Part shown: in pieces, positions 549 to 61,392 of the stretch
How positions within the stretch are numbered: the first letter of the stretch is position 1
Layout of the letters: each line of letters opens with the position of its first letter
From: Candidatus Omnitrophota bacterium
Lineage (GTDB): Bacteria > Omnitrophota > Gorgyraeia > Gorgyraeales > Gorgyraeaceae
Reading direction: 5' to 3'
Length of the DNA: 64,000 nucleotides
Assembly: GCA_030691625.1 (NCBI GenBank)
Contig: JAUYDX010000088.1
Location: 1,856-65,855, forward strand
Program-made: the position numbers and the translations under genes
The notes under the pieces: model-generated
Seen by the model: the letters and a program-made list of their open reading frames with translations, nothing else
What the model was told of the DNA's origin: nothing
Database searches by the model: none

Positions 549-675
549 GGGTTCTCGACTAAGCTTGCGCGATTAGCCGCAACGTCCGCTCGAACAATAT
601 TGCAGCAAAGGACAAAGTCCCCTAATATTCTTCGAGCGGTCACGAGAGCGTATCATGGGAGCGGAGTCGAGAAGT
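549..675. mobile_element. family-4 MITE (~127 bp) with GGTTCTCGACT / AGTCGAGAA terminal inverted repeats
   Basis: TIRs plus internal palindrome GTCCGCTCGAACAATATT..AATATTCTTCGAGCGGTC; ~90% identical to copy at 5992-6097. Confidence 0.8.
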
Positions 676-714
676 TCTTGTATTTGACAAATCAGCGCGC
701 AATTGATATCATAG

Positions 715-1395
715 ATGCAAATGTTTGAAAATAAATCTTTTCAGCTGGCTGTCCTGGTTTCGATCTTTTTGCATTTTTCCGTGTTCCTGATCACGCCTTA
801 TACAGGCGCGTTGCCAAGAAAAGAACGCATCGATCCCATAAAGGTAGCTTATTTTAAGGTAAAGGCCGAGCCTAAAAAGGTTGTGGGAGAGAGGCCGCGG
901 CCCATTTCTCCTCTGGCGCCAGAGGCATTGCCTAAAGTAAAGAAGGATGAGATTTTAAACCCGCCGCAGGCGCAGGCAAAAAAAAAGGAAGAGCCGACCG
1001 TTGAAACCATAACCTCTGACTCCAGGGCCATAATAGGCGCCAAAGGCAAAAAGTTTGAAACAGTTGTCAATGACGAGAAGGATAGCGGCAAGAAAGCCGC
1101 TTATATAGGTTACTACAGATCAGTAAGGGAAAGGATAAGGTATTACGCTGATAGAAATTATATAAAGCAGGGCAGCGCGGCCCAGGGCGAGGTTTTTCTG
1201 TCCTTTGTGGTGACCTCCAGCGGAGAGCTTCTTCATATAATGGTTATTGACGCAAAGTCAGCGGATGACGCGATGTTGAGAAACATAGCTGTGGACAGCG
1301 TGAGAGACGCGAGCCCCTTCCCGGCATTTCCCCAGGGCATGAACCAGTACCAGGTCACCTTCAACGTAATAATCTCCTTCGAACTCAACAAATAA
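715..1395 (+). CDS. TonB family energy transducer (N-terminal TM, Pro/Lys-rich linker, TonB_C domain)
   Basis: N-terminal hydrophobic anchor, PKKVVGERPRPISPLAPEALPKVKK proline-rich spacer, C-terminal TonB-like fold (GEVFLSFVV...NVIISFEL). Confidence 0.6.
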   Translation: MQMFENKSFQLAVLVSIFLHFSVFLITPYTGALPRKERIDPIKVAYFKVKAEPKKVVGERPRPISPLAPEALPKVKKDEILNPPQAQAKKKEEPTVETITSDSRAIIGAKGKKFETVVNDEKDSGKKAAYIGYYRSVRERIRYYADRNYIKQGSAAQGEVFLSFVVTSSGELLHIMVIDAKSADDAMLRNIAVDSVRDASPFPAFPQGMNQYQVTFNVIISFELNK

Positions 1396-1434
1396 CTTTA
1401 CACTTCAAACAATGTTACAAGTGTCAAGTTGTTT
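1394..1434. repeat. family-1 40-bp palindrome (AACTTKACACTT..AAGTGTCAAGTT) copy A, upstream of groES promoter
   Basis: near-perfect inverted repeat. Confidence 0.9.
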
Positions 1435-1444
1435 AAAAAAATAC

Positions 1445-1473
1445 TTGACAAAGAGCCAGGGTTTGGTATTATA
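1445..1473 (+). promoter_or_regulatory. sigma-70-like promoter of groES (TTGACA, 17 nt spacer, ATTATA)
   Basis: TTGACA at 1445-1450, 17 nt spacer, ATTATA at 1468-1473, immediately upstream of CIRCE. Confidence 0.55.
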
Positions 1474-1482
1474 TTACAATAA

Positions 1483-1509
1483 ATAGCACTCCTCTTGGTA
1501 GAGTGCTGA
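1483..1509 (+). promoter_or_regulatory. CIRCE operator (HrcA binding site) aTAGCACTC-N9-GAGTGCTgA
   Basis: Matches consensus TTAGCACTC-N9-GAGTGCTAA; located between promoter and groES RBS. Confidence 0.85.
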
Positions 1510-1528
1510 CAAAATAAGGAGGTGTTAT

Positions 1529-1816
1529 ATGGCAATACAACCTTTAGGAGACAGAGTTCTCGTAAAAAGGCTTGAAGCAGAGGAAAAGACCAAAGGAGGC
1601 ATTGTTTTACCAGACACTGCCAAGGAAAAGCCCCAAAAAGGCGAGGTGGTAAGCTGCGGCAAAGGCAAGACGCTTGAGAGCGGCAAGGTAGAGCCTTTGG
1701 AGGTTAAAAAAGGCGATGTGGTGCTTTTTGGCAAATATTCAGGCGCGGAAATCACTTATAAAGAGGAAGAGTATCTGATATTAAAGGAAGAGGACATTTT
1801 AGCAATAATCAAATAA
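1529..1816 (+). CDS. groES: co-chaperonin GroES
   Basis: 95 aa, [14 protein letters not shown]...[14 protein letters not shown] classic Cpn10; SD AAGGAGG upstream. Confidence 0.95.
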
Positions 1817-1859
1817 ACAACTTTACACTTCAAACAATGTTACAAGTGTCAAGTTGTTT
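1815..1859. repeat. family-1 palindrome copy B, between groES stop and groEL RBS
   Basis: AAACAACTTTACACTTCAAACAATGTTACAAGTGTCAAGTTGTTT. Confidence 0.9.
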
Positions 1860-1881
1860 GGGAAAAAGGGAGGGAAATAAG

Positions 1882-3522
<1,641 letters not shown>

Positions 3523-3530
3523 TAGTTTGA

Positions 3531-3609
3531 CTTCTCGACTCTGCTCTCCTGATATGCTTTCGTGACCGCTCGAAGAATATTGCTCGAGCGAACGAAGTGA
3601 GTCGAGAAC
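3531..3609. mobile_element. family-4 MITE, shorter copy in inverted orientation
   Basis: TTCTCGACT...GTGACCGCTCGAAGAATATTGCTCGAGCG...AGTCGAGAA. Confidence 0.75.
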
Positions 3610-3623
3610 ATTAGGCCACACTT

Positions 3624-3657
3624 AAGCCCGCGGCGAGAAATCGCCGCGGGCTTTTTA
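3624..3657 (+). terminator. rho-independent terminator after groESL
   Basis: 12 bp GC stem AAGCCCGCGGCG/CGCCGCGGGCTT, AGAAAT loop, T-run. Confidence 0.75.
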
Positions 3658-3665
3658 TTGCCTCC

Positions 3666-3712
3666 CAAACAACTTGACACTTCAAACAATGTTACAAGTG
3701 TCAAGTTGTTTG
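3666..3712. repeat. family-1 palindrome copy C
   Basis: inverted repeat, same consensus. Confidence 0.9.
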
Positions 3713-3729
3713 TTGTTCAAATAGCGTAT

Positions 3730-3758
3730 TTGACAATAAGATATCTATGTGATATATT
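3730..3758 (+). promoter_or_regulatory. sigma-70-like promoter (TTGACA-17-TATATT) for MoxR operon
   Basis: consensus hexamers with 17 nt spacer about 60 nt upstream of RBS. Confidence 0.5.
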
Positions 3759-3816
3759 TGAGGTAATATTTTATATTAAATTAATTAGATAATCAAACTC
3801 ACAAGGAGGATGCGGC

Positions 3817-4755
3817 ATGCCAGACCTTTACGAAATCCCCAAAAAGCTTATTGAGAATATCTCAAAGGTTATAGTGGGCAAAAAAGATGTAATTGAGCTG
3901 GTTGTTGTGGGCCTTATGGCCAATGGGCACGTGCTGCTGGAAGATGTGCCCGGACTGGGAAAAACAATGCTTTCCAGGACGCTCGCGAAATCCATAGCGG
4001 GCAGATTCAAAAGAATCCAGTTCACGCCGGATCTTCTGCCATCGGATGTTACCGGCGTTTCGATATACAATCAGAAAACAGGCGAGTTCGAATTCAACGA
4101 AGGCCCTGTATTCGCGAATATAGTGCTGGCCGATGAAATAAACCGCACCACGCCAAGGACCCAGTCAGCCCTGCTGGAAGCCATGCAGGAATTTAACGTT
4201 ACCATAGATGGGATCTTAAGGGAACTGCCGACCCCGTTTTTTGTAATAGCCACAGAAAACCCCATAGAATTTCACGGCACATATCCTCTGCCGGAGTCGC
4301 AGGTGGACAGGTTCCTTATGCAGCTTGCGGTAGGGTATCCTTCAAATGTGGAAGAGGTAAATATCCTTACAAGGAATTTCAGGGAATCCCCCCTGGAGAC
4401 CCTGCAGAGCGTAGTCAGCATAGAAGAAATAATAGAGGTCCAGAAGGCAGTGATGTCGGTGCACATAGACCAGAAAGTGGCTGATTACATAGTCCAGATA
4501 GTTTCCAGTTCCAGAAATATGCCTGGCGACATAAAGCTCGGGGCCAGTCCCAGGGCGTCGCTGGCGCTCATGCGCACGTCAAGGGCGCTGGCATTCCTTG
4601 ATAAAAGGGATTATGTAATACCTGATGATGTAAAAAATCTCTCGTATCATGTGCTTAAACACAGGCTTATCCTTCAGCCGCGCTCCATAGTGCGCGGGCT
4701 GACAACAAGAGACATTGTAAATCATATATTAAAAAAGGTCTCTGTGCCGGTTTAG
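3817..4755 (+). CDS. MoxR-like AAA+ ATPase
   Basis: Walker A GLGKT, Walker B DEINR, MoxR family length and motifs. Confidence 0.9.
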   Translation: MPDLYEIPKKLIENISKVIVGKKDVIELVVVGLMANGHVLLEDVPGLGKTMLSRTLAKSIAGRFKRIQFTPDLLPSDVTGVSIYNQKTGEFEFNEGPVFANIVLADEINRTTPRTQSALLEAMQEFNVTIDGILRELPTPFFVIATENPIEFHGTYPLPESQVDRFLMQLAVGYPSNVEEVNILTRNFRESPLETLQSVVSIEEIIEVQKAVMSVHIDQKVADYIVQIVSSSRNMPGDIKLGASPRASLALMRTSRALAFLDKRDYVIPDDVKNLSYHVLKHRLILQPRSIVRGLTTRDIVNHILKKVSVPV

Positions 4756-4758
4756 TAT

Positions 4759-5991
4759 ATGCTGATAACCCTCAAAGGCATATCTCTTCTTTTAGCCGTA
4801 ATAGTCCTCATAGCTATTGCCTGGAATACCGACATAACAATGGTGTACATATTTTTTGTGGTGGCCTTTGTTATGTTTGTACTGTCCCTGGCGCATACCT
4901 ATCTTAACATCCCGGATATAGATGTCCAGCGCGCGGTCCAGGAAACCGCATTCGAAGAAGAAGTGCTTAATATCAAGATGCGCATCCGCAATAAACTGTC
5001 CAGGCCTGTTTACTTTTTTGAGCTGTTGGATTTTTTTCCAGGCGGCCAGCCGGGCAAGGAGAAGATATCCCTGTTTATCCTGGCCATAAACCCGGGAGGG
5101 GAGATCAATTTTAATTACAGCGCGGATTGTTACAAAAGAGGCGTATGGAAACTCGGGCCTATAGAGATTACGTCTCAGGATGCCCTGGGTTTTTTTAGAA
5201 TGAAAAAAATCCTGGACGTAGTATCTGATATAGTTGTATATCCGGCTGTTTTCAGGATAATGGCTTTTCCTGCCCTGGCCAGCGGGTCTGTTTCATGGAT
5301 GGGAGTGGAGACAGCCAAGATAAGCGGAGACAGCCACGAATTTTTCGGGATCAGGGAATATCAGCGCGGAGACACGATAAGCAAGATGCATTGGCCGTCC
5401 ACAGCCAAGCATAATAAATTGATAGTGAGGCAGTTTGAGCGCAACGCGGTCCAGGAGGCGACCATAGTGCTGGACCTTATGAAGGGCCATGATATAGGCG
5501 CGGGCAGGGAAACTACGCTTGAGTACGCTGTAAAGATATCCGCATCCATAGCGAAGTTTCTGCTCAATAGCGGTGTCTTTGTGCAGGTAATGGGATATAC
5601 AGACGAGGCGCTGGTGATACCGTTCGGAAAAGGCGAATCCCATATGTATAAAATACTGGAATACCTGGCAAAGGTCCAGTCTACAGGAGGGCATAATCTC
5701 AGCGAGACGCTGGAAGAGGCGAGTTTTCTTACGCCTTATAGCTCCACGCTTGTGGTGACAATGCTGGACAATGACATGGACGCGCTTTCCAGCCTGGTGC
5801 AGTTCAGGGCAAAAGGCGTAAAGCTCATAGTGGCTGTGCTTTCTGTTTCAACTTTTGGCCACTCTGATGAGATTGAGTATCTGGATACAGAGGCCGCTAA
5901 AAAGTTTGACGAGGCGCTGGTGGGCCTGGATGCCTACGTGTACAGGATATCCAAAGGCGATGATTTTGAGAAAAAATTCGAGACAGCGTAA
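4759..5991 (+). CDS. DUF58 (vWA-like) protein, MoxR partner
   Basis: conserved EFxGxREYxxGD motif (HEFFGIREYQRGD), N-terminal TM helices, operon position after MoxR. Confidence 0.8.
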   Translation: MLITLKGISLLLAVIVLIAIAWNTDITMVYIFFVVAFVMFVLSLAHTYLNIPDIDVQRAVQETAFEEEVLNIKMRIRNKLSRPVYFFELLDFFPGGQPGKEKISLFILAINPGGEINFNYSADCYKRGVWKLGPIEITSQDALGFFRMKKILDVVSDIVVYPAVFRIMAFPALASGSVSWMGVETAKISGDSHEFFGIREYQRGDTISKMHWPSTAKHNKLIVRQFERNAVQEATIVLDLMKGHDIGAGRETTLEYAVKISASIAKFLLNSGVFVQVMGYTDEALVIPFGKGESHMYKILEYLAKVQSTGGHNLSETLEEASFLTPYSSTLVVTMLDNDMDALSSLVQFRAKGVKLIVAVLSVSTFGHSDEIEYLDTEAAKKFDEALVGLDAYVYRISKGDDFEKKFETA

Positions 5992-6097
5992 TGGTTCTCG
6001 ACTGGGCTTGCGCATTACGATAATAACGTCCGCTCGAACAATACTAATATTCTTCGAGCGGTCAGAAGAGCGCATCATGGGAGCGGAGTCGAGAAGC
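5992..6097. mobile_element. family-4 MITE
   Basis: TIRs GGTTCTCGACT / AGTCGAGAAG, same internal palindrome. Confidence 0.8.
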
Positions 6098-6111
6098 CCT
6101 TTAATATTTAT

Positions 6112-7743
6112 ATGAATAGAGACTTTTTATATTTTCATTTTGCGAATCTGGGGCTTATTATGATAGGGATATTGTCTGCGCAGAAAATCCTGGGCCCTAT
6201 TATCACAGCAGGGCTTTTAGCCGGGATTGTGGCGGGATTTTTCTTCAGCTGGAGTATCAGGAAGGCCAGGCCTCCGCACATAGATACTTTTATAGGCATG
6301 CTCTCGCTGGCCAGCGTGGTGATTATACTGAGCAGGTTTTACGAGGTGCAGATAACCTTTGAAAATCTCATAAAGATTTTTTCAACAGCCCTTGTCTGGC
6401 TCAGCCTTTTCCAGTCTTTCGGGCTGGAGGACTACAAGAATTATAATATAGTCCAATTTATATCAGTCTGCCTTTTGATCGCTTCTGTAAGCCTCGCGCT
6501 TGAAAATGAGGCGATCTACGTCTTTTACCTTACGGTTTTTCTGTTTCTGTTTATTTTCACTACGCGCCTGGGCCTTGTGTGCAAAAAACAGACCCAGGGC
6601 TCTGTCATCATAGGCGATAAGGAAGAGATAATGAGCCTGTGGCAGCAGATAAAGATAGGCGCGATCATGTTTTCTATTGTCCTGATGCTCTCTGCCCTGG
6701 TTTACCCTATGGTGCCCAGGTTCAACAGCCTTTCTTTAAGCTGGGTGCCTGCCTCGCTTCTGGGCCTGCCTGAGAAGATCCCGCTTTTAAAATTGATAAA
6801 TGACGCGAGGCAGAAGATCAAAGACAAAAAAAATAAGAAAGACCAGCTGATAACGGACAATCTTAAGAAAAGAGAGACAAGCGGAGACAAGATTCAGCAA
6901 AAAAAGCTTGAAAAACAAAAAGAGAAGCAGACATCTACAGAAAGATTCAAGGCGGGAGATTTTGATAAATCCGTGGATGTTTTAAAAATAGAGAGCCTTA
7001 CGATAAAGGCGGATAAAAACGAGATACCGCTTGATCAAAAAGCAAATCTGAAGGCGGAATTAAAACTGACAGACGGTTCCGGTATCCCTGCCACAAGGCT
7101 TGTGGACTGGAAGGTCATAGGGTCAGGGCAGGGCTCAGGCGGCGGCATCGGAAGAGTTATGATAGACAAAGACGGGAATATTACCCCCAGGGGGCCTGGG
7201 TTTGTCACTATATCCGCCTCTTACATGGGGACCTTCAGCAACGACGTGAAAATCAAGATAAAAGAACCGCTGAAGCCTAAAAAGAAAAGAGGTTTTTTAT
7301 TTTATTTTTTTATTTTTTTCTTATGGTTATTATTGCTATCGCTCGTTATCCTGACCATAAGGACTATTATAAGGGTATACACCTTGACGGAGATGCGGGA
7401 ATTGGCCCCGAAGAGGTTCATAAAAGAACTGTATTTTGCGCTTTGCAGGGCGCTTAAATTTTACGGGGTCCGCAAAATGAATTATACGGCTTACAGGGAA
7501 TTCTATAAGTTCATCAAAGAGCTTATCCGCGCGAGGCCGGAGCCGATGTACGCCTTTACAGAAAATTTTATGGAATCGCATTTCTCCGAGCACGAGATTA
7601 CCACAGAGCATTCCCATAAATACCTGGATTTATTCCACGAAACAAAAGACGTCATCCTGGAAAGAGACGATAAAAATAGCTTTTTGAGGGGTATCCTCTT
7701 CAGGCTGTATTTGCTCGACATATTACTCATACCCAAAAAATAA
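6112..7743 (+). CDS. multi-pass membrane protein with Big_2 Ig-like domain and DUF4129-like C-terminus (third gene of MoxR/DUF58 operon)
   Basis: N-terminal TM bundle, K/E-rich linker, Big_2-like segment (KVIGSGQGSGGG...VTISASY), TM helix, C-terminal domain typical of DUF4129. Confidence 0.5.
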   Translation: MNRDFLYFHFANLGLIMIGILSAQKILGPIITAGLLAGIVAGFFFSWSIRKARPPHIDTFIGMLSLASVVIILSRFYEVQITFENLIKIFSTALVWLSLFQSFGLEDYKNYNIVQFISVCLLIASVSLALENEAIYVFYLTVFLFLFIFTTRLGLVCKKQTQGSVIIGDKEEIMSLWQQIKIGAIMFSIVLMLSALVYPMVPRFNSLSLSWVPASLLGLPEKIPLLKLINDARQKIKDKKNKKDQLITDNLKKRETSGDKIQQKKLEKQKEKQTSTERFKAGDFDKSVDVLKIESLTIKADKNEIPLDQKANLKAELKLTDGSGIPATRLVDWKVIGSGQGSGGGIGRVMIDKDGNITPRGPGFVTISASYMGTFSNDVKIKIKEPLKPKKKRGFLFYFFIFFLWLLLLSLVILTIRTIIRVYTLTEMRELAPKRFIKELYFALCRALKFYGVRKMNYTAYREFYKFIKELIRARPEPMYAFTENFMESHFSEHEITTEHSHKYLDLFHETKDVILERDDKNSFLRGILFRLYLLDILLIPKK

Positions 7744-13109: not shown

Positions 13110-14393
13110 ATGATTAAAGCATTGCGCGGCACAAAAGATATTCTGCCAGGCGAGTCGGATTTATGGCAATTTATAGAATCTACTGGCAGGGATATATTTA
13201 ATATATATGGGTATAATGAGATAAGGACGCCGATAATAGAGGAGGCGTCTTTGTTTATAAGGGGCATAGGAGACCTGACTGACATAGTGCAGAAAGAGAT
13301 GTATGTTTTTTCTGACAGGGGCAATAGGCGAGTTGCGCTGAGGCCTGAGGCCACAGCGTCTATTGTCCGCGCGTATATAGAAAATTCAATGTCCCAGTCA
13401 GGCGGGGCCGCAAAGCTATTTTACACAGGCCCGATGTTCAGGAGCGAGAGGCCTCAGCAGGGCAGGCAGAGGCAGTTCTATCAGATAGGCGTGGAGGCAA
13501 TAGGCTCGGACAGCCCGTTTCTTGACGCTGAGGTTATTGCGCTGGCTGTGAGATTTCTTGACAGGCTTGGCGTTAAAAATTATCACGTGAAATTGAACAG
13601 CCTGGGCTGTCAGAAGGATAAAATGGCCGCAATAGCAAAACATAAAGAGAACTTTAAGCCTCATTTTGAAAAATTATGCGACACCTGCAAGGCCAGGTTT
13701 GACAAAAATGTCTTGAGGATATTTGACTGCAAGGGCGATACGTGCAGGGTCATTGCTGAAAATGTAAAGGTGGAGGCAGCGCTCTGCAATGACTGCGAGT
13801 CGCATTTTAAAAAGGTGAAACAGTGCCTGGACGAACTGGGCGTTAAATACACTGTGGATCATAAAATAGTAAGGGGCCTGGATTATTATACAAAGACTGT
13901 ATTTGAGATAACCCAGGATGACCTGGGCGCGAAAGACGCCATATGCGCCGGAGGCAGATATAATAATCTGGTAAAGGAACTGGGCGGGAAAGATACGCCT
14001 GCTACCGGGTTTGCTTTTGGCGTGGAGCGCCTGGCGCTTGCGTTAAAAGCTGTCAGCTGTCAGCATTCAGCTGTCAGCCCTAAAGTTTTTGTTGCGGTTG
14101 CGGGAGAAGGGCTTTACCCTGAAGCGTTTAAATTGCTGGATTCTTTGCGCGGCGCCGGGATCGCAAGCGAAATGGATTATGACGAGAGAAGCTTAAAGAG
14201 CCAGATGAGAAAGGCAGAGAAGCTCGGGGCAGGGTTTGTGGTTATTTTAGGGGAAGATGAGTTTAAAAAAGGCAAAGCTGTATTAAAGGATATGAGTAGC
14301 GGAGACCAAAAAGAAATAATGCTGAATGAAATTATTTCGGCGCTCCATACCATAAAAACTTCGCAGGTTGCCGAAGGCAACCTGCGAAGTTGA
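13110..14393 (+). CDS. hisS: histidyl-tRNA synthetase; C-terminal 11 aa and stop supplied by a family-2 palindrome
   Basis: class II aaRS motifs, MIKALRGTKDILP start; ends TSQVAEGNLRS* inside REP. Confidence 0.9.
   Translation: MIKALRGTKDILPGESDLWQFIESTGRDIFNIYGYNEIRTPIIEEASLFIRGIGDLTDIVQKEMYVFSDRGNRRVALRPEATASIVRAYIENSMSQSGGAAKLFYTGPMFRSERPQQGRQRQFYQIGVEAIGSDSPFLDAEVIALAVRFLDRLGVKNYHVKLNSLGCQKDKMAAIAKHKENFKPHFEKLCDTCKARFDKNVLRIFDCKGDTCRVIAENVKVEAALCNDCESHFKKVKQCLDELGVKYTVDHKIVRGLDYYTKTVFEITQDDLGAKDAICAGGRYNNLVKELGGKDTPATGFAFGVERLALALKAVSCQHSAVSPKVFVAVAGEGLYPEAFKLLDSLRGAGIASEMDYDERSLKSQMRKAEKLGAGFVVILGEDEFKKGKAVLKDMSSGDQKEIMLNEIISALHTIKTSQVAEGNLRS
14048..14078 (+). repeat. short tandem repeat (GCTGTCAGC x3) inside hisS coding sequence
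   Basis: gctgtcagctgtcagcattcagctgtcagc encoding AVSCQHSAVS. Confidence 0.7.
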
Positions 14394-14398
14394 GGTGG
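14356..14398. repeat. family-2 palindrome forming hisS 3' end and aspS RBS
   Basis: AACTTCGCAGGTTGCC-GAA-GGCAACCTGCGAAGTT + GAGGTGG. Confidence 0.9.
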
Positions 14399-14402
14399 TT
14401 AA

Positions 14403-16508: not shown

Positions 16509-16571
16509 CCGCCTCAACCTCGCAGGTTACCTCGCAGGTTACCTCGCAGGTAACCTGCGAGGTTGAGGCGG
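16509..16571. repeat. family-2 palindrome with internal triplication (CCTCGCAGGTTA x3)
   Basis: CCGCCTCAACCTCGCAGGTTACCTCGCAGGTTACCTCGCAGGTAACCTGCGAGGTTGAGGCGG. Confidence 0.9.
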
Positions 16572-16605
16572 TTTGTTGTAAAGTTGTTGAGGGTGTAAAC
16601 CTTGG

Positions 16606-17553: not shown

Positions 17554-19726
17554 AAAACAGAAAAACCCGGGATTTTCCAGTAAGCTATCGCATGTCCTTA
17601 TAGCTGTAATCACGTGCCTGGTGCTGGTATTGATAGTGGAATGGGACACAAGCCTTTTCGACGCTGTATTTACCGAGGGCGACATAGTGCTGAAGTCCAC
17701 CTACGCGCCTTTTGATTTTAAGATAAAAGGCGAGATAGACTCTAATGCCACTGAATCCGCCAGAAAAAGCGCGATGGAAAAAGTCCCGCCTGTATACCTC
17801 ATTGACAGCTCTATCAAAGAAACAGTTTTAAGCAGGGTAAATTCTATTTCCGACGCAATAAACTCCCTTCATGTCCCTAAAGAGGGAGAGTCCCCTGAAG
17901 ACAGGCTCTCCAGGATCAAGGAAACTATGGCGCCTTTTGAAATACCAATGCCTTTAACGCATAACATGCTGGAACTTAAAGACCCAAAGGGGTTTTTTGA
18001 AGAAGCTGTAAAGACCGCGGAATATATCCTGGACACCGGCCTTATATCCAGCCAGGAGCTCGCCAGGCTGGATAAGGAATCTGTAAAGACAGTGACGCTG
18101 TTAGATAAGGCAAAAAACACGGAACAGGTTAAATTCACGAACGAGCTGTGGTTATTTTCTGACGCGAGAAAGAGGGCGGATAACCTGTTGGCCGCGTTGA
18201 AGGAAAAAAAGGAAAAGGCCCTGCTCATAGATCTTATAAGCGGCGTAATAACAACCCCGAATATAAAATATCAGGACTCTGAAACTGATTTTAGAAGGCA
18301 GGCCGCGGCTGCCAAGGTAAAACCTATATACACCACTCTGGAAGTAAAAAAGAACGAACTTATAATAAATAAAGGCGAGCGCATATCAAAAGAGGATATG
18401 CTGAAGCTGGAGGCTATTGCGCAGAAAGAGCCCTATCCCACAAAGGTCGTGGCGTTTTTCGGGATCGCGCTGATAATAATTTTATTCATGCTGATCCTCG
18501 TATTTTATATAGAATTTTATGAACCTGACCTGATAGTGGGCAATAAAGAACTTGTACTTCTCGCGTCAATATGCGTCCTGGTGATTTTAGCGGCAAAGCT
18601 GATCGTGCTATCCCCTTACCCGAGTAACTTTATACCCATAGCAGCGGCGTCCATGCTTATCGCGCTTCTCTTGAATAGCAGGCTCGCGATAATCACGACG
18701 TGTTTCTTGGGCATACTGGCAGGCATGGTTTCCGGCGGGAGAATGGATATAGCGGCAATGTCCATAATAGGAGGCATGATAGGGATATTTGCGGTGAGGA
18801 ATGTTAGAAGGAGATCCCAGCTTATATCAGCCGGATTTTTAGTGGGACTGGCCAATATGACTTATTTCATAGCCATAGGGCTTATAAATTCCCTGGATTT
18901 CCACACCTATATGACAGAGGCGTCCATAGGAATGGCTAACGGCATGGTGTCCGCGATAATAGTGACAGGCGTTTTGCCTATTTTTGAAAGTATGTTCAAA
19001 AGTATTACTGATATAAGCCTTCTTGAGACAGCGGATTTGAACCACCCAATCCTTAAAGAGATGGTTATAAAGGCGCCCGGAACATATCACCACAGTCTTG
19101 TGGTGGGGAACCTGGCTGAGGCCGCGTGCGAGACAATAGGCGCCAATGCGCTCCTCGCGCGGGTGAGCTCGTATTTTCACGATATAGGAAAGATAGAAAA
19201 GGCGGAATATTTCAGCGAAAACCAGGCAGGCGAATCCCCGCACGATAAACTCTCTCCCACAATGAGCAGCCTGATAATAACAAACCACGTGAAAAACGGA
19301 GTGGAACTCGCAGAGAAATACGGCTTAAACACCAGGATCGTGGCTATAATAAAGCAGCACCACGGCACAGGGCTTGTTTTTTATTTTTTCAAAAGGGCGC
19401 TGGAGAAGACCGTGGAAGATCAGGAGGTTTTTGAAGAGGGCTTCAGGTATCCTGGCCCAAAGCCGCAGACAAAAGAGGCCGCGTGCGTGCTTCTGGCTGA
19501 CTCGGTAGAGGCCGCGTCCAGGACTCTTGACGACCCTACGACATCCAGCATACAGGGCCTCGTGAAAAAGATCATAAATAATAAATTCATAGACGGCCAG
19601 CTGGACGAGTGCGAATTAACGCTGAAGGACCTGGAAAAGATAGCGGATGTATTCACGCACATCTTGACCGGCATATACCACAACCGCGTGGAATATCCGG
19701 AAGACACCGGCAAGAAGAAGGCATGA
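17534..19726 (+). CDS. 7TM receptor with intracellular HD hydrolase (PgpH/YqfF family)
   Basis: N-terminal extracellular domain, 7 TM helices, C-terminal HD domain (HHSLVVGNLAE...HDIGK); phoH-pgpH-ybeY synteny. Confidence 0.85.
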   Translation: MRKTLNKKQKNPGFSSKLSHVLIAVITCLVLVLIVEWDTSLFDAVFTEGDIVLKSTYAPFDFKIKGEIDSNATESARKSAMEKVPPVYLIDSSIKETVLSRVNSISDAINSLHVPKEGESPEDRLSRIKETMAPFEIPMPLTHNMLELKDPKGFFEEAVKTAEYILDTGLISSQELARLDKESVKTVTLLDKAKNTEQVKFTNELWLFSDARKRADNLLAALKEKKEKALLIDLISGVITTPNIKYQDSETDFRRQAAAAKVKPIYTTLEVKKNELIINKGERISKEDMLKLEAIAQKEPYPTKVVAFFGIALIIILFMLILVFYIEFYEPDLIVGNKELVLLASICVLVILAAKLIVLSPYPSNFIPIAAASMLIALLLNSRLAIITTCFLGILAGMVSGGRMDIAAMSIIGGMIGIFAVRNVRRRSQLISAGFLVGLANMTYFIAIGLINSLDFHTYMTEASIGMANGMVSAIIVTGVLPIFESMFKSITDISLLETADLNHPILKEMVIKAPGTYHHSLVVGNLAEAACETIGANALLARVSSYFHDIGKIEKAEYFSENQAGESPHDKLSPTMSSLIITNHVKNGVELAEKYGLNTRIVAIIKQHHGTGLVFYFFKRALEKTVEDQEVFEEGFRYPGPKPQTKEAACVLLADSVEAASRTLDDPTTSSIQGLVKKIINNKFIDGQLDECELTLKDLEKIADVFTHILTGIYHNRVEYPEDTGKKKA

Positions 19727-20172: not shown

Positions 20173-20245
20173 CCACAATGTCCGCTCGAACACTAATATT
20201 CTTCGAGCGGTCACGAAAGCTGGATGTGAGAGCAAAGTCGAGAAA
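20146..20245. mobile_element. family-4 MITE overlapping ybeY 3' end
   Basis: GTTCTCGACT...GTCCGCTCGAACACTAATATTCTTCGAGCGGTCACGAAAGC...AGTCGAGAAA. Confidence 0.8.
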
Positions 20246-22221: not shown

Positions 22222-22262
22222 ACCTCGTAGGTTGCCGTAGGCAACCTACGAGGTTGTGGTGG
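22222..22262. repeat. family-2 palindrome between recO stop and glyQ start
   Basis: ACCTCGTAGGTTGCC-GTAG-GCAACCTACGAGGTT + GTGGTGG. Confidence 0.9.
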
Positions 22263-22267
22263 TTTCT

Positions 22268-25265: not shown

Positions 25266-25288
25266 TGAGAAAGGAAGGCAGTAGCAAA

Positions 25289-44929: not shown

Positions 44930-45061
44930 ATGAGACGTTTTATCTGGATTGTTTTAGTGCTGGCGCTTGTGGCAGGGATAGCAGGATGCAGCAGGGCAAA
45001 ACGCATAGCCAATGACGTGGACTGGATTGTTTTTGACGGCCAGCCGTCAAAGGATAACTGA
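44930..45061 (+). CDS. small lipoprotein (43 aa), hypothetical
   Basis: SD GGAGGG, signal with lipobox IAGC; below ORF-track length cutoff. Confidence 0.3.
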
Positions 45062-45066
45062 TAAAA

Positions 45067-45107
45067 ACCTCGTAGGTTGCCAAAGGCAACCTGCGAGGTT
45101 GAGGTGG
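45067..45107. repeat. family-2 palindrome upstream of cysE
   Basis: ACCTCGTAGGTTGCC-AAA-GGCAACCTGCGAGGTT + GAGGTGG. Confidence 0.9.
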
Positions 45108-45113
45108 TATAAA

Positions 45114-48796: not shown

Positions 48797-48853
48797 AGAA
48801 GGCAGTATATACGAAAAATATCATTTTTGCAACCTTTTACTACCTTAACCTGC

Positions 48854-48886
48854 CCCAACCTACGAGGTAACCTGCGAGGTTGAAGA
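48854..48886. repeat. family-2 palindrome (partial left arm), upstream side of REPtron
   Basis: CCCCAACCTACGAGGTAACCTGCGAGGTTGAAG. Confidence 0.8.
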
Positions 48887-48946
48887 TAAAAAATTAAAAT
48901 TTTTGAAAGAAACCCCTCATCTAAATGTGTCTTATATGGTAAATAA

Positions 48947-48988
48947 ACCACCTCAACCTGCGAGGTAACCTGCGAGGTTGAAGTGGTT
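48947..48988. repeat. family-2 palindrome immediately 5' of RAYT gene
   Basis: AACCACCTCAACCTGCGAGGTAACCTGCGAGGTTGAAGTGGTT. Confidence 0.9.
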
Positions 48989-49008
48989 AAATCAAAGAGG
49001 AGGTGGAT

Positions 49009-49638
49009 ATGTTTGTTACAGGCGAAATTTATCATGTTTATAGTAAGAGTATAGCTGATTTTAAGATATTCAATAATGATTTTGAATACCAGAGAATTAA
49101 TAAAGCAATGCAATATTATCAAGTTTCTAAACGGCCTGGAAGTTTTTCTAACTTTTTGGAATACGGGAAACAGCTTTCAGCGGGTAATACCAATAATAAA
49201 CTGGTGCAAATTATTTCTTATTGTCCGATGCCGACTCATTTGCATTTTACCTTAAAGCAATTAATAGAAAAAGGGATATCAACATTTATGAGCAATGTCC
49301 TCAATAGCTATACCCGTTATTTTAATATCAAGCATAACCGTAAAGGTCCGCTATGGGAAGGGCGGTTCAAGAAAGTATTGGTGAAAAGCGATGAACAGCT
49401 AATTCATCTGACTCGCTATATCCATTTAAATCCTGTTACAGCAGGTTTGGTTAATAATCCGATAGATTGGCCATGGTCTTCTTATCATGAGTTTATTAAT
49501 AAAGATTTAACAGAAGACAGCATTTGTGAATACAAAAATATATTAGACATAAAACCTGATAGTTATAAAGCATTCACAGAAGATAGAGCTTCTTATCAAA
49601 GAGAATTGGCAAAAATAAAGCATATACTGATCGATTAG
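49009..49638 (+). CDS. REP-associated tyrosine transposase (RAYT; IS200/IS605 TnpA-like HUH enzyme)
   Basis: HUH motif HLHFTL, catalytic Tyr region RYIHLNPV, ~200 aa; flanked on both sides by inverted family-2 palindromes. Confidence 0.8.
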   Translation: MFVTGEIYHVYSKSIADFKIFNNDFEYQRINKAMQYYQVSKRPGSFSNFLEYGKQLSAGNTNNKLVQIISYCPMPTHLHFTLKQLIEKGISTFMSNVLNSYTRYFNIKHNRKGPLWEGRFKKVLVKSDEQLIHLTRYIHLNPVTAGLVNNPIDWPWSSYHEFINKDLTEDSICEYKNILDIKPDSYKAFTEDRASYQRELAKIKHILID

Positions 49639-49680
49639 ACCACCTTAACCTACGAGGTAACCTGCGAGGTTGAGATGGTT
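49639..49680. repeat. family-2 palindrome immediately 3' of RAYT gene
   Basis: GACCACCTTAACCTACGAGGTAACCTGCGAGGTTGAGATGGTT. Confidence 0.9.
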
Positions 49681-51411
49681 ATCAGGGTGTGGTATAATAG
49701 ACGCATGGCAGTTAAAAATATATTTTTAATTATCATTATAATTATCGCGGCAGCCGCGCCTTATATAAACTCCATGCACAATCCTTTCATCTGGGACGAG
49801 GAGGAGATTATAGTAAAAAATCCCGTGATAAAAGATTGGAGCTACCTGCCGCATGTTTTTAAGACAAACATTTTCGGGACAGCAATAACCCCGTCCGGTT
49901 ACTACAGGCCCATGTATACGCTGTCATTCATGGCAGATTACAATATCTGGGGCCTTAATACCTTCGGATACCACCTCTTTAATATCCTATTCCATGTTTT
50001 AAACGCTATTTTGCTGTATTTACTTCTCATGAAGCTTGGGCTGGACAGGAAAATCGCATGCTTTAGCAGTGTATTATTCGCTGTGTATCCGATAAACTGC
50101 GAAGCTGTTACGCTTATAGCCGCAAGAGTGGAGCTCATAGCGGGTTTTCTGCTTTTATCGTGCATGATATGTTTTATCAATGGCGTAAAAGGCCGGGGGC
50201 TTAATTTTCTATTGTCCATTATTTTCTTTGCGCTGGCCATGTTGACAAAAGAAAGCGTTATGGTATTCCCGTTTATACTACTGGCTTACACCCTGATATT
50301 CGTAGAGAAAAAGCCCGGGTCAAAGGCTATTTTACCTTTAATGGTTTTGATATTAATGGCCGCGTTTTACGGTATTGCCAGGTTCCTGCTTCTGGGCCAC
50401 TCGCCGGTCACAACCTTATCCCTTATAAACAGCGCCAGTTTTATTGAAAAGGTTTTTACGTTGCCGGGGATATTATTTACATATGTGTCGCTTATATTGT
50501 TTCCTGTCAGGCTGATAAGCGAATACGATTTTGTGCTGCGAAGTTTCTGGGATCCGCGCGTCTGGCTGGCAGCGTTTTTATTAATAGCCATGTTTTCAGC
50601 CGCGTATCTGCGGCTTAAGCCAAAAAAATATCCGCTATTTTTCATATCCTGGTTTTTAATAAGCCTGGCGCCTTACTTTAATATAATAATCCCCCTGCAT
50701 GCCACTCTTATGGAGCATTGGGCGTATTTTTCCACAATGGGTTTCGCTGCCCTGTCAGGGATAGCTGTTTTTAATATGGCTGAATCCGCGTCTTCCAGGT
50801 GGCTGAAAGGGCTTCTGATCCTGATGGCCGCGTCCCTTATCGGATTTTATATCGCGAAGATAACAGAGCGCAACATGGAATGGAGCGATCCTTTCAGGTT
50901 ATACCAGGCAGATGTTAAAAAAGAGCCGAATAGTTTTTTACTGCATTGCAATCTGGGCGTGGAGTATTTCAGGAGAGGGATGACGGAAGAGGCTGAAAAA
51001 GAATTCCTGGAATGCAATAATGTAAGCCCCGGCGGTAAATATGACACAGCCTGCAATAACCTGGGAGTGATATACGCGAGAAAAGGCAGGACAGAAGAGG
51101 CAATAGCTTTATACAAGGAGAGCATAGACATCAATAACTATCCCCTGGCTTATGAAAATTTAGGCGGGCTTTATAATGCCATGGGTAAACATAGAGACGC
51201 TGTATTAATTCTTGAAAAAGGCGCTGAGCTGTACCCATTAAACATTAATATCCTGTACCAGTTAGGGATCGCTTATTACATGAACAAGGAATTTGGCCCG
51301 GCTAAACAGATGTTTCTGAGGGTGGAGGGGATCCAGAAAAATTATTCAGACACAGCCAAATTCCTCAATCTCCTAAACAACTTGACACTTCAAACATTGT
51401 CACAAGTGTAA
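49675..51411 (+). CDS. polytopic membrane protein with C-terminal TPR repeats, paralog of 46174-47778; C-terminus and stop inside a family-1 palindrome
   Basis: same architecture and alignable N-terminus (..WDEEEII / FQFDDVKRIVG..) as the paralog. Confidence 0.6.
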   Translation: MVIRVWYNRRMAVKNIFLIIIIIIAAAAPYINSMHNPFIWDEEEIIVKNPVIKDWSYLPHVFKTNIFGTAITPSGYYRPMYTLSFMADYNIWGLNTFGYHLFNILFHVLNAILLYLLLMKLGLDRKIACFSSVLFAVYPINCEAVTLIAARVELIAGFLLLSCMICFINGVKGRGLNFLLSIIFFALAMLTKESVMVFPFILLAYTLIFVEKKPGSKAILPLMVLILMAAFYGIARFLLLGHSPVTTLSLINSASFIEKVFTLPGILFTYVSLILFPVRLISEYDFVLRSFWDPRVWLAAFLLIAMFSAAYLRLKPKKYPLFFISWFLISLAPYFNIIIPLHATLMEHWAYFSTMGFAALSGIAVFNMAESASSRWLKGLLILMAASLIGFYIAKITERNMEWSDPFRLYQADVKKEPNSFLLHCNLGVEYFRRGMTEEAEKEFLECNNVSPGGKYDTACNNLGVIYARKGRTEEAIALYKESIDINNYPLAYENLGGLYNAMGKHRDAVLILEKGAELYPLNINILYQLGIAYYMNKEFGPAKQMFLRVEGIQKNYSDTAKFLNLLNNLTLQTLSQV

Positions 51412-52911: not shown

Positions 52912-53090
52912 AAGAAAAAAGCCGATAAAGGCTTTTAGCTTCGGCTTTTCATCGCTCGGCAACCCGGCCGCCATATTATTACTGACTGCCTCACTGACCA
53001 TTTGCGTTAGCTCAGGTCACGGCTTGTCAGAATAACTTAGGCCCGTAGGCTTTGCGCCCCCTGATTTCTCAGGGTTTGCCCTTATCGGCT
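52912..53090 (-). ncRNA. c-di-GMP-I (GEMM) riboswitch-like RNA with own promoter and terminator, convergent with/antisense-oriented to the GGDEF gene
   Basis: minus-strand RNA AGCCGAUAAGGGCAAACC-CUGAGAAAUCAGG-GGGCGCAAAGCC-UACGGGCCUAAG...GGCGGCCGGGUUGCCGAGCGAUG matches the GEMM consensus; ends in a hairpin plus U6. Confidence 0.55.
52917..52950. terminator. bidirectional intrinsic terminator (ends GGDEF gene on + and GEMM RNA on -)
   Basis: AAGCCGA..TCGGCTT hairpin flanked by A-run on one side and T-run on the other. Confidence 0.6.
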
Positions 53091-57405: not shown

Positions 57406-57409
57406 GCGC

Positions 57410-58567: not shown

Positions 58568-58632
58568 GCGCCCGCTCCTGAAACATGCAAGTAAATCCCA
58601 CTCTATATTAGAAAATCCCAAGTAAATATCAG

Positions 58633-61293
58633 ATGACGAAAAAAGAAAAGCTTTTTTTGATAGACGGAAACTCTTATTGTTACAGGGCTTTTTACGCCAT
58701 AAAGGACCTTAGGAATTCAAAAGGCCGGCCTACGAACGCCGCGTACGGTTTTGTCCTGATGCTAAGGAAACTGCTGGAAAAGGAAAAGCCGGATTATATC
58801 GGCGTGGCGTTTGACCTGAAAGGCCCCACGTTCAGGCATAAACAGTTTGAGGATTACAAGGCGCACAGAAAGCCCATGCCTGATGACCTCGTGAGCCAGA
58901 TGGATTTGATCAAGGAGATTATATCAGCTTACAGGATAGCCATTTTTGAAAAACAGGGTTTTGAGGCAGATGACATACTGGCAACAATAGCGGAAAAGGC
59001 GTCTCTGGCAGGCATAGACGTTTACATAGTTACAGGCGACAAGGACATGCTGCAGATAATAAACAACCGTATAAAGGTTTACAGCACCCATAAAGACGAT
59101 CTCGTGTATGACAATGAAAAGGTAAAGGAGAGGTTCTTGGGCCTCGGCCCTGAGAACATAACGGATTTCATAGCCCTGGCAGGCGATACCAGCGACAATA
59201 TACCGGGCGTACGCGGTATAGGCGAAAAAACAGCCATAGAGCTGATAAAGGAATTCGGCGACATAGACTCTCTTTACAAAAATCTGGACAATATTAAGAG
59301 CGAATCAAAAAGAAAGATGCTGGGGGAGCAGGAGGAAAACGCCAGGATGTCCAAAGAGCTCGCAACAGTGGACAGAAACGTGCCCATAGAGATAGACTTT
59401 GGCGCTATGCGGGTGAAAGGCCCTGACCAGGAAGCGCTTCTCGCTATTTTCAAAGACCTGGAATTTAAGAATTTCGCGAAAGAGATCGCCTCGCGTGATT
59501 CAGATGTCCACAAAGAGGCATGCTATAAGACAATTTCAAGCGCAGGAGGCCTCGACTCATTTATTAAAGAGCTCGGGAAACAAAAGGAATTTGTCCTGGA
59601 TATTGAGACCACGAGCGAACAGCCGATGGAGGCTGAACTGGTAGGTATTTCGTTTTGCTGGAAAGACGGGGAGGCGTATTACGTAGCGCTGAAAAATATC
59701 CCGGACGCAATGAAGGAACTGAAACCTATCCTTGAAGACGAAAAGATAAAAAAGATCGGACAGAATATAAAATACGACAAGCTGGTTTTGTCGCGCTATG
59801 GCGCGGATGTCAGAGGCATAGCATTTGATACAATGATAGCGGCATATCTATTGAATCCTTCCAGTATGAGCCATGGCCTGGATGACCTCGCGTTTGAATA
59901 TCTGGACCACAAGATGACGCCTATTGACGAGCTCCTGGGTAAGGGCAAAAAAAAGGTCACCATGGACATGGTGGACATTGAAAAGGTATCCATGTATTCC
60001 TGCGGAGACAGCGACGTTACGCTGAGGCTTAAAAATATATTCGAAAAAGAGCTTTCCAAAAAAGAGCTCGAGCCCCTTTTCCGGGACATAGAACTGCCGC
60101 TGGTGGATGTCCTGACTGATATGGAAAAAAACGGGGTAAAGATAGACTCAGATTTTTTAAAAGGGGCGTCTATCGATATGGAAAAAGAGCTTTTAGTCCT
60201 CATTAGGGACATATATAAAATAGCCGGCGAAGAATTCAATATAAATTCCCCTAAACAGCTTAGCCGGATCCTGTTTGAAAAACTGGGGCTGCCCGTAGTA
60301 AAAAAGACAAAAACAGGGGCTTCTACTGACGTGGAGGTCCTGGAGAGGCTTTCTCCGATGCATCCTCTTCCAAAGGAACTCCTGAGGTACAGGGAACTGT
60401 CCAAACTTAAATCTACTTACGTGGACGCCCTGCCCGAGCTTATCAATAAAAAAACAGGCAGGCTTCACACGTCTTTTAACCAGGCGATCACAGCCACTGG
60501 CAGGCTTTCGTCGTCCAACCCAAATCTCCAGAATATCCCCATAAAAACAGAAGAGGGCAGAAAGATCAGAAAGGCGTTTATCGGGGAAAAAGGGAATCTC
60601 ATAATGTCAGCTGATTATTCCCAGATAGAGCTTAGGATACTGGCGCACCTTTCAAAAGACCCTGAGCTGATATCAGCCTTTGAGCAGGACAGGGACGTGC
60701 ACAGCCACACGGCGTCGCTTATTTTTGGGGTGAGCGAAAAAGAAGTCACGCCTGAGATGAGGTCTAATGCCAAGACAGTGAATTTCGGGATTATTTACGG
60801 TATCAGCGGATTCGGGCTGGGTAAATCCCTTAATACAGACCCTGCCAGCGCCCAGGAGTTCATAGATGCTTATTTCGAGAGATATCCGCGTGTAAAAGTC
60901 TATATGGAGGATAAAATAGAGGAAGCCAGAAGCTCCGGATATGTGACAACCCTTTTTAACAGGCGCAGGTATATCCCTGAGATCCAGACAGGCGGCATGA
61001 GAGAAAAACAGCAGGCAGAGCGTATTGCCATAAATACGCCTGTGCAGGGCTCTGCCGCGGACTTGATAAAGATAGCCATGATAAATATTTACACAGAGAT
61101 GAGGAAAAGGAAAATGAAGTCGCTGATGACAATGCAGGTCCACGACGAACTTGTGTTCGAGGTGGTTAAAAGCGAATTAGAGGAAATGAAGGAATTGGTA
61201 AAAAGGGAGATGGAAGGCGCTGTGAAGCTCTCAGTGCCTGTCAAGGTAAGCATCCAGTGCGGCAAAAACTGGCTGGATATGGAGGACGCGTAG
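58633..61293 (+). CDS. polA: DNA polymerase I
   Basis: 5'-3' exonuclease, 3'-5' exo-like and polymerase domains; motif A DYSQIELR, motif C QVHDELVFE. Confidence 0.97.
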   Translation: MTKKEKLFLIDGNSYCYRAFYAIKDLRNSKGRPTNAAYGFVLMLRKLLEKEKPDYIGVAFDLKGPTFRHKQFEDYKAHRKPMPDDLVSQMDLIKEIISAYRIAIFEKQGFEADDILATIAEKASLAGIDVYIVTGDKDMLQIINNRIKVYSTHKDDLVYDNEKVKERFLGLGPENITDFIALAGDTSDNIPGVRGIGEKTAIELIKEFGDIDSLYKNLDNIKSESKRKMLGEQEENARMSKELATVDRNVPIEIDFGAMRVKGPDQEALLAIFKDLEFKNFAKEIASRDSDVHKEACYKTISSAGGLDSFIKELGKQKEFVLDIETTSEQPMEAELVGISFCWKDGEAYYVALKNIPDAMKELKPILEDEKIKKIGQNIKYDKLVLSRYGADVRGIAFDTMIAAYLLNPSSMSHGLDDLAFEYLDHKMTPIDELLGKGKKKVTMDMVDIEKVSMYSCGDSDVTLRLKNIFEKELSKKELEPLFRDIELPLVDVLTDMEKNGVKIDSDFLKGASIDMEKELLVLIRDIYKIAGEEFNINSPKQLSRILFEKLGLPVVKKTKTGASTDVEVLERLSPMHPLPKELLRYRELSKLKSTYVDALPELINKKTGRLHTSFNQAITATGRLSSSNPNLQNIPIKTEEGRKIRKAFIGEKGNLIMSADYSQIELRILAHLSKDPELISAFEQDRDVHSHTASLIFGVSEKEVTPEMRSNAKTVNFGIIYGISGFGLGKSLNTDPASAQEFIDAYFERYPRVKVYMEDKIEEARSSGYVTTLFNRRRYIPEIQTGGMREKQQAERIAINTPVQGSAADLIKIAMINIYTEMRKRKMKSLMTMQVHDELVFEVVKSELEEMKELVKREMEGAVKLSVPVKVSIQCGKNWLDMEDA

Positions 61294-61392
61294 GGTTCTC
61301 GACTTTGCTGCCGTAATAAGCTTTCGTGACCGCTCGAACAATATTGTTCGAGCGGACGTTGTGGCTATGCATGTAAGCTTAGTCGAGAACCC
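61293..61392. mobile_element. family-4 MITE between polA and coaE, perfect 12-bp TIRs GGGTTCTCGACT/AGTCGAGAACCC
   Basis: TIRs and internal CGCTCGAACAATATTGTTCGAGCG palindrome. Confidence 0.85.

Follow-up and report, generated by a model that had tools for sequence, protein, structure and literature searches.

The stretch of DNA analysed here, 64,000 nucleotides of a Candidatus Omnitrophota genome (contig JAUYDX010000088.1, positions 1,856 to 65,855; hereafter the window), carries six copies of a short palindromic repeat, termed family 4. With a probability of roughly 55%, family 4 is an old, phylum-restricted family of palindromic repeats comparable to repetitive extragenic palindromes (REPs), bacterial interspersed mosaic elements (BIMEs) and Rickettsia palindromic elements (RPEs), and not a miniature inverted-repeat transposable element (MITE) derived from an insertion sequence (IS). 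Its behaviour fits repeats of the REP/BIME and Rickettsia type better than an IS-derived MITE. The original prediction, which described a recently mobilised MITE, was wrong on both the kind and the age of the element.

The six copies lie within 1–2 nt of the places predicted for them. Each has the paired termini GGTTCTCGACT/AGTCGAGAACC with 0–2 mismatches, and the alignments confirm an internal palindrome common to all six. When up to 2 mismatches are allowed, the 11-mer GGTTCTCGACT forms six facing pairs at 550/675, 3530/3610, 5993/6097, 20146/20246, 29425/29526 and 61294/61391. The bare 11-mer has no significant enrichment in the window (16 matches with ≤2 mismatches vs 10.7 expected), so the signal comes from the pairing of the termini together with the internal palindrome and not from the 11-mer alone. 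An nhmmer profile of the six copies matches exactly these six in the window (E values of 1e-24 to 1e-33), the next best match having E = 0.25. All six fold into a long hairpin (DNA z-scores from −3.6 to −7.9), a stability that none of 200 shuffles reached. Copies 2 and 6 are inverted relative to the other four, which had gone unnoticed, giving four copies on the plus strand and two on the minus strand. The alignment improves after these two are reverse-complemented, and the element therefore has a polarity. The copies and their contexts, given as open reading frames (ORFs), are:

551–674, plus strand: copy 1, full-length with a 22-nt apical loop insert; nhmmer E = 1.5e-33; DNA fold −26 kcal/mol, z = −3.6; outer stem 552–559/666–673, inner stem approximately 587–601/624–639, loop 602–623; 2 nt past the stop of a TonB-dependent-receptor ORF (9–548) and 40 nt before a TonB ORF (715–1395).
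3531–3609, minus strand: copy 2, a short form with one arm reduced to CACTTCGTT; E = 8.5e-25 on the minus and 7e-8 on the plus strand; z = −4.2; 8 nt past the stop of ORF 1837–3522 and followed by a GC-rich terminator-like hairpin and a hairpin of the D1 family.
5994–6096, plus strand: copy 3, full-length; E = 5.5e-32; z = −6.2; 2 nt past the stop of ORF 4759–5991 and 15 nt before the start of ORF 6112–7743.
20147–20245, plus strand: copy 4, full-length; E = 1.7e-32; z = −5.6; the YbeY ORF 19609–20172 (Pfam PF02130) ends within the element, and a DAGK/PAP2 ORF starts at 20255, 9 nt beyond.
29426–29525, plus strand: copy 5, full-length with a perfect 11-nt terminal inverted repeat, AGTTCTCGACT/AGTCGAGAACT; E = 1.9e-32; z = −6.4; between a phosphoribosyltransferase ORF (28890–29405) and a tRNA gene (29550–29623).
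61294–61391, minus strand: copy 6, with a perfect 13-nt terminal repeat, AGGGTTCTCGACT; E = 2.4e-32 on the minus strand; z = −7.9; no gap to the stop of ORF 58633–61293, with the next gene 17 nt downstream.

ybeY takes its last 8 codons (SSRLSIHI) and its stop from the first 26 nt of copy 4, the sole coding contribution of family 4 in the window. The terminal repeat of copy 6, AGGGTTCTCGACT, takes in the AG of the upstream TAG stop codon. Between copy 2 and the adjoining D1 hairpin, a GC-rich hairpin followed by TTT (AAGCCCGCGGCGAGAAATCGCCGCGGGCTTT) resembles an intrinsic terminator at 3636–3665, so that three hairpins are stacked at one junction.

The element is a nested double palindrome, with an outer stem GTTCTCGAC/GTCGAGAA, an inner stem CGCTCGAACAATATT/AATATTCTTCGAGCG, and variable arms and apical loop. 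The order of the unit is G-TTCTCGAC-T, arm A, CGCTCGAACAATATT, an apical loop of 0–30 nt, AATATTCTTCGAGCG-G, arm B, and A-GTCGAGAA-G, continued by WTAA. Every one of the six window copies, like the 73 anchored copies, has an inverted repeat of 9–13 bp, (G)TTCTCGAC(T)/(A)GTCGAGAA(C). Of the 73, 70 have G at position −1 and 67 have G at position +1, with A or T at +2 and +3 and mainly A at +4 and +5. The consensus begins with RG-TTCTCGAC and finishes with GTCGAGAA-GWWAA, the conserved 3′ end reaching a few bases beyond the inverted repeat (G-W-W-A-A) and the 5′ end not. With this 3′ flank and no T run, a reading of the element itself as an intrinsic terminator was set aside.

The arms are exchangeable modules. 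One pair, A1 (GGGCTTACATGTATAGTCGCAATGTC) and B1 (TCACGAGAGCGTATCATGGGAGCAG), is loosely complementary, and the other arms are small self-folding hairpins, for instance GGCCTTCGGCC, CCGCCTACGGCGG and GTCCCGAAGTATCGGGAC; the apical loop frequently contains a further small hairpin. The minimal form, lacking arms, is 44 nt long (L025:2052–2095, where L-numbers denote loci in related genomes used for comparison), and copies, which are non-coding, range from 44 to 135 bp. Arms and loop inserts occupy the three positions that are predicted to be unpaired in this 44-nt core. Most copies have unlike arms (A1/B1), and near-perfect long hairpins of two inverted like arms occur at L027:608–703 and L024:4621–4748. 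Half copies and tandem arrays are also present. L007:1–300 holds five 51-nt half-elements head-to-tail, L047:4223–4507 holds three copies with the left flank repeated along with each, and L043:4426–4622 holds two such copies; these arrays suggest slippage or unequal recombination at the repeats. Across the 32 full-length copies compared, which come from 6 genomes, both 9-bp stems hardly vary at all, with compensatory change in one of 20 predicted pairs. The sequence is constrained, and not the pairing alone.

The family is confined to one phylum as far as a strict 23-nt pattern of the inner palindrome can tell. Scanned over one genome per species in 185,579 species, the pattern matched 47 stretches, all in metagenome-assembled genomes (MAGs) of Candidatus Omnitrophota (at least 10 named) except for one MAG labelled 'uncultured bacterium'; given the strictness of the pattern, this taxonomic range is a lower bound. 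No Rickettsia genome was matched by it among the species representatives. nhmmer on the matched loci and the window yields 93 non-overlapping copies in 48 sequences. ORFs of the window also group with ORFs of Omnitrophota. Among 2.9 million viral contigs there was a single match, restricted to the inner palindrome and on a contig of 58.6% GC without outer stems; it was treated as chance. No Rfam 15 family at gathering thresholds overlaps any copy, and in a permissive scan of 400–6300 the only partial overlap was Bp2_287 on copy 2, below threshold at 34 bits against a 70-bit cut-off. A full-text literature search found no paper on repeat elements of Omnitrophota.

Where the copies lie relative to genes was determined from crude ORF calls, with distances to stop and start codons measured on 34 sense-oriented copies. 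The copies sit almost always between co-directional genes and fill the stop-to-start junctions, and the window has the same pattern. Of 34 sense copies, 27 begin −1 to +11 nt from the stop codon, and 27 end 2–20 nt short of the point where the downstream ORF has its first in-frame start codon; in 10, the element and the upstream TAG stop share a base, the initial G of the one being the final G of the other. The orientation favours the sense of the flanking genes, by 34:10 in the anchored set (p = 4e-4) and by 41:11 in the nhmmer set (p = 4e-5). In the window, GC skew is uniformly positive and nearly all genes are on the plus strand. At one locus, L022, a gene appeared to be split by the element, but its PilT/MshEN/PilB ORFs are separate genes and this case was dropped.

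Elements are gained or lost at these sites without the signature of a MITE. In a clean pair of filled and empty junctions, the empty L027 reads GTGTTTTAA followed directly by TTATG, and the filled L002 reads GTGTTTTA, the element (GTTCTCGAC...GTCGAGAAGTATAA) and ATTATG; with the unit written out, the latter is G TTCTCGAC...GAGAAGTATAA before ATTATG. The pair permits a duplication of ≤1 nt, and the G of the element restores the stop codon. In a synteny block shared by three species (L003/L025/L043) the copies are at different junctions in each species, and murE, like the L002/L027 junction, is filled or empty according to lineage. Target-site duplications (TSDs), the direct repeats that MITE-finding programs seek as a structural feature, had been set beforehand as a check; in 73 copies, for k = 2–8 with boundary offsets of 0–5 on each side, flank k-mers recur no more often than in permuted flanks.

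A classical MITE would be an internally deleted IS with terminal inverted repeats (TIRs) of 11–12 bp, recently active and moved in trans by a DDE transposase encoded elsewhere. Inverted termini of 9–13 bp in every copy, a length of 44–135 bp, the lack of coding capacity, the high copy number and the presence or absence at orthologous sites all agree with this, and that much of the original prediction stands. Its IS-derived class and recent activity do not. Besides the lack of TSDs, the conserved 3′ end passes the inverted repeat where the 5′ end does not, and neither a long element or parent IS with GGTTCTCGACT termini nor a DDE transposase was seen in a non-exhaustive search of the window and 373 kb of element-bearing loci. 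The stem sequence is kept across at least 10 species, which is not normal for an IS-derived MITE family. Copies 1 and 3, which were said to be nearly identical at about 90%, are 85.3% identical over 102 aligned positions and differ by a loop indel of 22–23 nt; copies from other species match them just as closely (85%). Identity of copies within a genome (77.1%, arms 58.6%) equals that between genomes (77.3%, arms 58.9%), which gives no sign of genome-specific homogenisation and makes recent bursts and concerted evolution both unlikely. Recent mobilisation is further contradicted by orthologous copies that persist where the genes are 64–82% identical. A classical MITE is thus the weakest of the readings, and we regard it as highly improbable.

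Between 14 and 22 of the 93 copies lie inside long ORFs of related genomes, in frame and without stop codons. The hosts, identified through Pfam, are:

MurE, annotated as UDP-MurNAc-tripeptide synthetase in NCBI records.
GT9 heptosyltransferase.
GT4 glycosyltransferases, two genes.
Radical-SAM enzyme.
PrmC-like methyltransferase.
MurA-like enzyme with the EPSP-synthase fold.
Large uncharacterised protein, with two copies of the element.

These copies are probably translated with the host gene, judging from their open frames. The usual reading is SSRL...SLEQYSSSG...EVEK, with VLDSAS... also read in sense and LLDSAS... in antisense orientation. The inserts are located at domain boundaries and linkers or in surface loops, and three of the hosts (MurE, the MurA-like enzyme and the large protein) have homologues free of the insert. 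When MurE was modelled with AlphaFold (mean predicted local distance difference test score 87.9), residues 290–312 formed a low-confidence loop between two confident strands, and the insert falls in this loop. A profile of the element-encoded peptides, which is too short for a sensitive search, had two matches among 5.8 billion proteins, neither of them significant (best E = 0.014). An apparent excision footprint ('SSRL') in the MurA-like gene of L003 proved to be DNA unrelated to the element, and a comparison of the radical-SAM genes of L022 and L043 was not clean owing to runs of N and a variable region.

The murE site reveals how the element is kept over time. Among 119 aligned Omnitrophota orthologues, about 10 have a family-4 insert, others have unrelated inserts and about 90 have none; nucleotide sequences were obtained for six alleles with the element and two without. 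The six filled alleles have the element at the same position with identical stems and four arm sets, in genes that are only 64–82% identical. In three lineages the genes are 75% identical and the elements 96–99% identical, and the probability of ≤1 difference in 80 nt at the rate of the flanks is ~4e-9. The element is better conserved than the flanking coding DNA, codon third positions included. On these comparisons the copies look old, with their stems held constant.

Across Omnitrophota, insertions concentrate in this same β-hairpin loop of MurE (alignment columns 346–380; residues ~287–317 of L013:2224–3798), which is a hot spot for them. Inserts of several unrelated kinds are present in about 28 of the 119 orthologues, and some of the peptides are typical of other palindromic repeats, e.g. 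...ALPNVVIARPKAEAIS. The allele in L128 (murE 581–2047) is 95.8% identical to that of L013 (2224–3798) and has no element, and a tract of ~170 nt around the site differs between the two. This is the only gain or loss seen between close relatives. The L128 tract carries a different small hairpin (GCGGAGCCGGGTTCCGC) in place of the element.

Alternatively, family 4 may be a functional cis-acting nucleic-acid module under host-level purifying selection, with the CTCGA/TCGAG stems as putative recognition sites. We hold this to be rather unlikely as a whole, and it is slightly less probable still in the specific form of a conserved nested hairpin, placed at operon junctions and also within essential genes, with a dedicated protein that recognises its two CTCGA-containing stems in DNA or RNA. 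In one version the element would act as a hairpin in the RNA between genes of an operon, where a conserved protein binds or cuts it for mRNA processing, stabilisation or stop-to-start translational coupling; since the element fits exactly between a stop and the next start, the base of its stem would bring both together. In a second version, which follows a proposal made for BIMEs, a nucleoid or topology protein would bind it as DNA. The invariance of the stems without covariation, the orthologous copies that are far better kept than their flanks even at third positions, the lack of excess similarity within genomes, the ~4:1 bias towards the sense of transcription and the exact stop-to-start fit are all expected of such a module. 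Its difficulty is that copies occur in both orientations, and in frame in at least 8 enzyme genes unrelated to one another, always in loops and linkers, which could accommodate any insert that is tolerated. Moreover, most orthologous genes and junctions are empty (~90 of 119 for MurE, and the L027 junction), arms are freely swapped, tandem and half copies exist, and there is no match to an Rfam family. G·U pairs on the sense strand do not significantly exceed A·C (14 vs 7, p = 0.19). The conservation data favour a functional module, while the in-frame copies, empty sites and arm swapping argue against it as the full explanation; such a function is compatible with a selfish origin.

The original prediction also stated that the window encodes no cognate transposase. 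A gene of the Y1/IS200-like type, resembling the REP-associated tyrosine transposases (RAYTs), is in fact present at 49030–49638, so that the statement was incomplete; the gene is flanked by a different palindrome family and no link to family 4 was seen. Searches by tblastn that took unverified sequences of E. coli RayT and of IS200 TnpA as queries, used as a lead only, pointed to three Y1 genes, which Pfam confirmed:

Window 49030–49638 (ORF 49003–49638), plus strand: RAYT-type Y1 gene, Pfam PF01797 (Y1_Tnp), with the HUH motif THLHFT and the tyrosine motif YIHLNPV.
L004:5651–6142: RAYT-type Y1 gene, Pfam PF01797, with HUH and tyrosine motifs.
L030:73–654: RAYT-type Y1 gene, Pfam PF01797, with HUH and tyrosine motifs.

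The window gene has the compound palindrome ACCACCTCAACCTGCGAGGTAACCTGCGAGGTTGAAGTGGT, of the D3 family, on both sides (48944–48989 and 49636–49681), and with this classic arrangement it looks like a REP-RAYT system. The genes in L004 and L030 are flanked by yet other palindromes. A hidden Markov model built from the three proteins found no further Y1 gene in the 373 kb of element-bearing loci. These genomes thus run REP-RAYT systems, none of them linked to family 4.

A stricter form of kinship would make family 4 a REPIN, a pair of inverted REP units moved together by a single-copy cognate RAYT that is itself flanked by family 4 and lies outside the window. REPINs lack autonomy and are thought to rely on RAYTs (PMC3337134, PMC3116915). 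The RAYT-type genes in the window, L004 and L030, each with its own flanking palindromes as in REP-RAYT systems, accord with such a scheme, as do the near-perfect hairpins of two inverted like arms in L027 and L024, the lack of TSDs, and the orientation bias, which is expected for single-strand transposition tied to the direction of replication. Most copies, however, have two unlike arms (A1, B1) and are not inverted copies of one REP, and family 4 is also intragenic, whereas REPs and REPINs are extragenic by definition. No RAYT flanked by family 4 was found in the 373 kb or among 80 metagenomic RAYT loci, and the GTAG/CGTC tag is absent. The stems are identical across species; according to Bertels and Rainey, the REPIN consensus is said normally to differ between species, co-evolving with the RAYT. 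A strict REPIN is therefore a doubtful reading.

For a REP/BIME- and RPE-like repeat, a mode of spread can be proposed. The copies would have been laid down by an insertion of the hairpin or single-strand-DNA type, which we infer because secondary hairpins occur at the three predicted-unpaired positions and because orientation follows the direction of genes and replication. The likeliest agent would be an HUH Y1 enzyme of the RAYT-like kind; such enzymes are encoded here, none linked to family 4. Copies may survive since a self-folding insert would do little harm at gene junctions and in protein loops, and the stems may be kept constant because a protein acting in trans, be it this enzyme or one of the host's own factors, recognises them.

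Several observations weigh against this reading. Family 4 flanks none of the three RAYT genes present in 373 kb of DNA that bears the element, and none of 80 metagenomic RAYT loci carries a copy. The consensus ends lack the GTAG/CGTC tag, which PMC3733652 describes at the palindrome end for most REPs. In the MurA-like gene, the element replaces 18 nt of host sequence, and the difference between L013 and L128 looks like allelic replacement by a short recombination import, not a clean insertion. The evidence on in-frame copies and conservation comes from related genomes and not from the window, and the gene calls are crude ORFs. Lastly, the invariance of the stems and the long life of orthologous copies exceed what is expected of a purely selfish, decaying repeat, and point towards a host-level function.

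Comparison with known systems places the family. RPEs are palindromic and occur both between genes and, with unusual frequency, in frame in unrelated housekeeping genes, where they add a fold-compatible peptide (PMC10969869). Family 4 shares with them the palindromic structure, the lack of a transposase of its own, and the occurrence between genes and in frame in unrelated housekeeping genes. RPEs measure ~100–150 bp. In keeping with fold-compatible placement, the MurE insert of family 4 falls in a low-confidence loop. Family 4 differs in being found in Omnitrophota, in its smaller size (44–135 bp), nested double palindrome and exchangeable arms, and is likened to RPEs by behaviour and not by sequence; its stems are also invariant across species and better kept than the host gene, and most of its copies are at stop/start junctions. 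With REPs and REPINs it has in common dense extragenic palindromes just downstream of genes, the lack of TSDs, and palindrome-flanked RAYT genes in the same genome, and with BIMEs the mosaic combining of a few motifs. Unlike REPs and REPINs, family 4 flanks no RAYT found, lies also in ORFs, and has one stem sequence in many species.

Other short repeats are more distant. MITEs such as Correia/CREE, ERIC, Nezha and Chunjie are likewise short, multi-copy and hairpin-capable with TIRs, and some MITEs make in-frame fusions (PMC10969869); family 4 has no TSDs, no related IS in the loci examined and no sign of recent bursts. The palindromic amphipathic repeat coding elements (PARCELs) form tandem arrays within genes for surface proteins. 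PMC2996958 describes them as translated palindromic repeats that give similar peptides in either orientation, and speaks in general terms of intragenic tandem repeats and surface phenotypes. Family 4 is also translatable into similar peptides both ways (VLDSAS..., LLDSAS...), but is mostly single-copy, interspersed and intergenic. We assign family 4, as a new member, to the palindromic repeats of the REP/BIME/RPE class.

The window is unusually dense in palindromic repeats, with about 40 copies of at least 5 families in 64 kb holding ~57 genes. The D3/D6 family (AACCTCGCAGGTTGCC..GGCAACCTGCGAGGTT), which flanks the RAYT gene, has further copies at 14352–14399, 16517–16574, 22216–22265, 45061–45110, 48846–48898, 63225–63272 and 63522–63567. 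The D7 family (GGTGCCAGGCACCGTGCCTGGCACC) is found at 25225–25275 and 34011–34061, with shorter copies at 13081, 28043 and 30854. The D1 family is a near-perfect hairpin, AACAACTTGACACTTGTGACAATGTCACAAGTGTCAAGTTGTT, of ~43 nt with fourteen copies in the window, mostly directly past stop codons, and D8 hairpins are related to it:

1391, 1816, 3668, 7760, 9072, 12639, 23113, 29627, 39640, 40533, 43699, 51376, 53139 and 57414: D1 hairpins.
15779, 48063, 55656 and 55693: D8 hairpins, four copies.

Apart from the repeats, a c-di-GMP-I riboswitch at 34122–34209 (plus strand, 81.8 bits) lies upstream of a small ORF (34266–34649) and of an 857-aa ORF (34836–37409). The latter contains five to six repeats of 87 aa (261-nt period, 35891–37244) with the motif DGD.L.Y.WDFGDG, and is a candidate PKD-like protein by resemblance. 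A c-di-GMP-I-GGC riboswitch match at 52954–53089 is on the minus strand, opposite to nearly all genes, and scores 59.9 bits against a threshold of 59; either it is a false match or it controls a small ORF on that strand.

Omnitrophota are bacteria of ultra-small size that are uncultivated, and family 4 extends to this distant phylum the in-frame palindromic inserts in essential enzymes that RPEs exemplify. The repeats will disturb the assembly of Omnitrophota MAGs, gene calling (through spurious ORFs and shifted stop codons) and protein alignments, and can also serve as a simple sequence marker for Omnitrophota DNA. Stems that are identical while the host gene diverges by 25–35%, together with the equal likeness of copies within and between genomes, are hard to explain by selfish spread alone, and sequence-specific maintenance or function is therefore directly testable. 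If family 4 is a functional module, it would represent a novel type of cis-element, spread genome-wide in a phylum that has received little study and kept nucleotide for nucleotide while synonymous sites changed by ~25–35%, with translated copies under a dual constraint of coding and structure.

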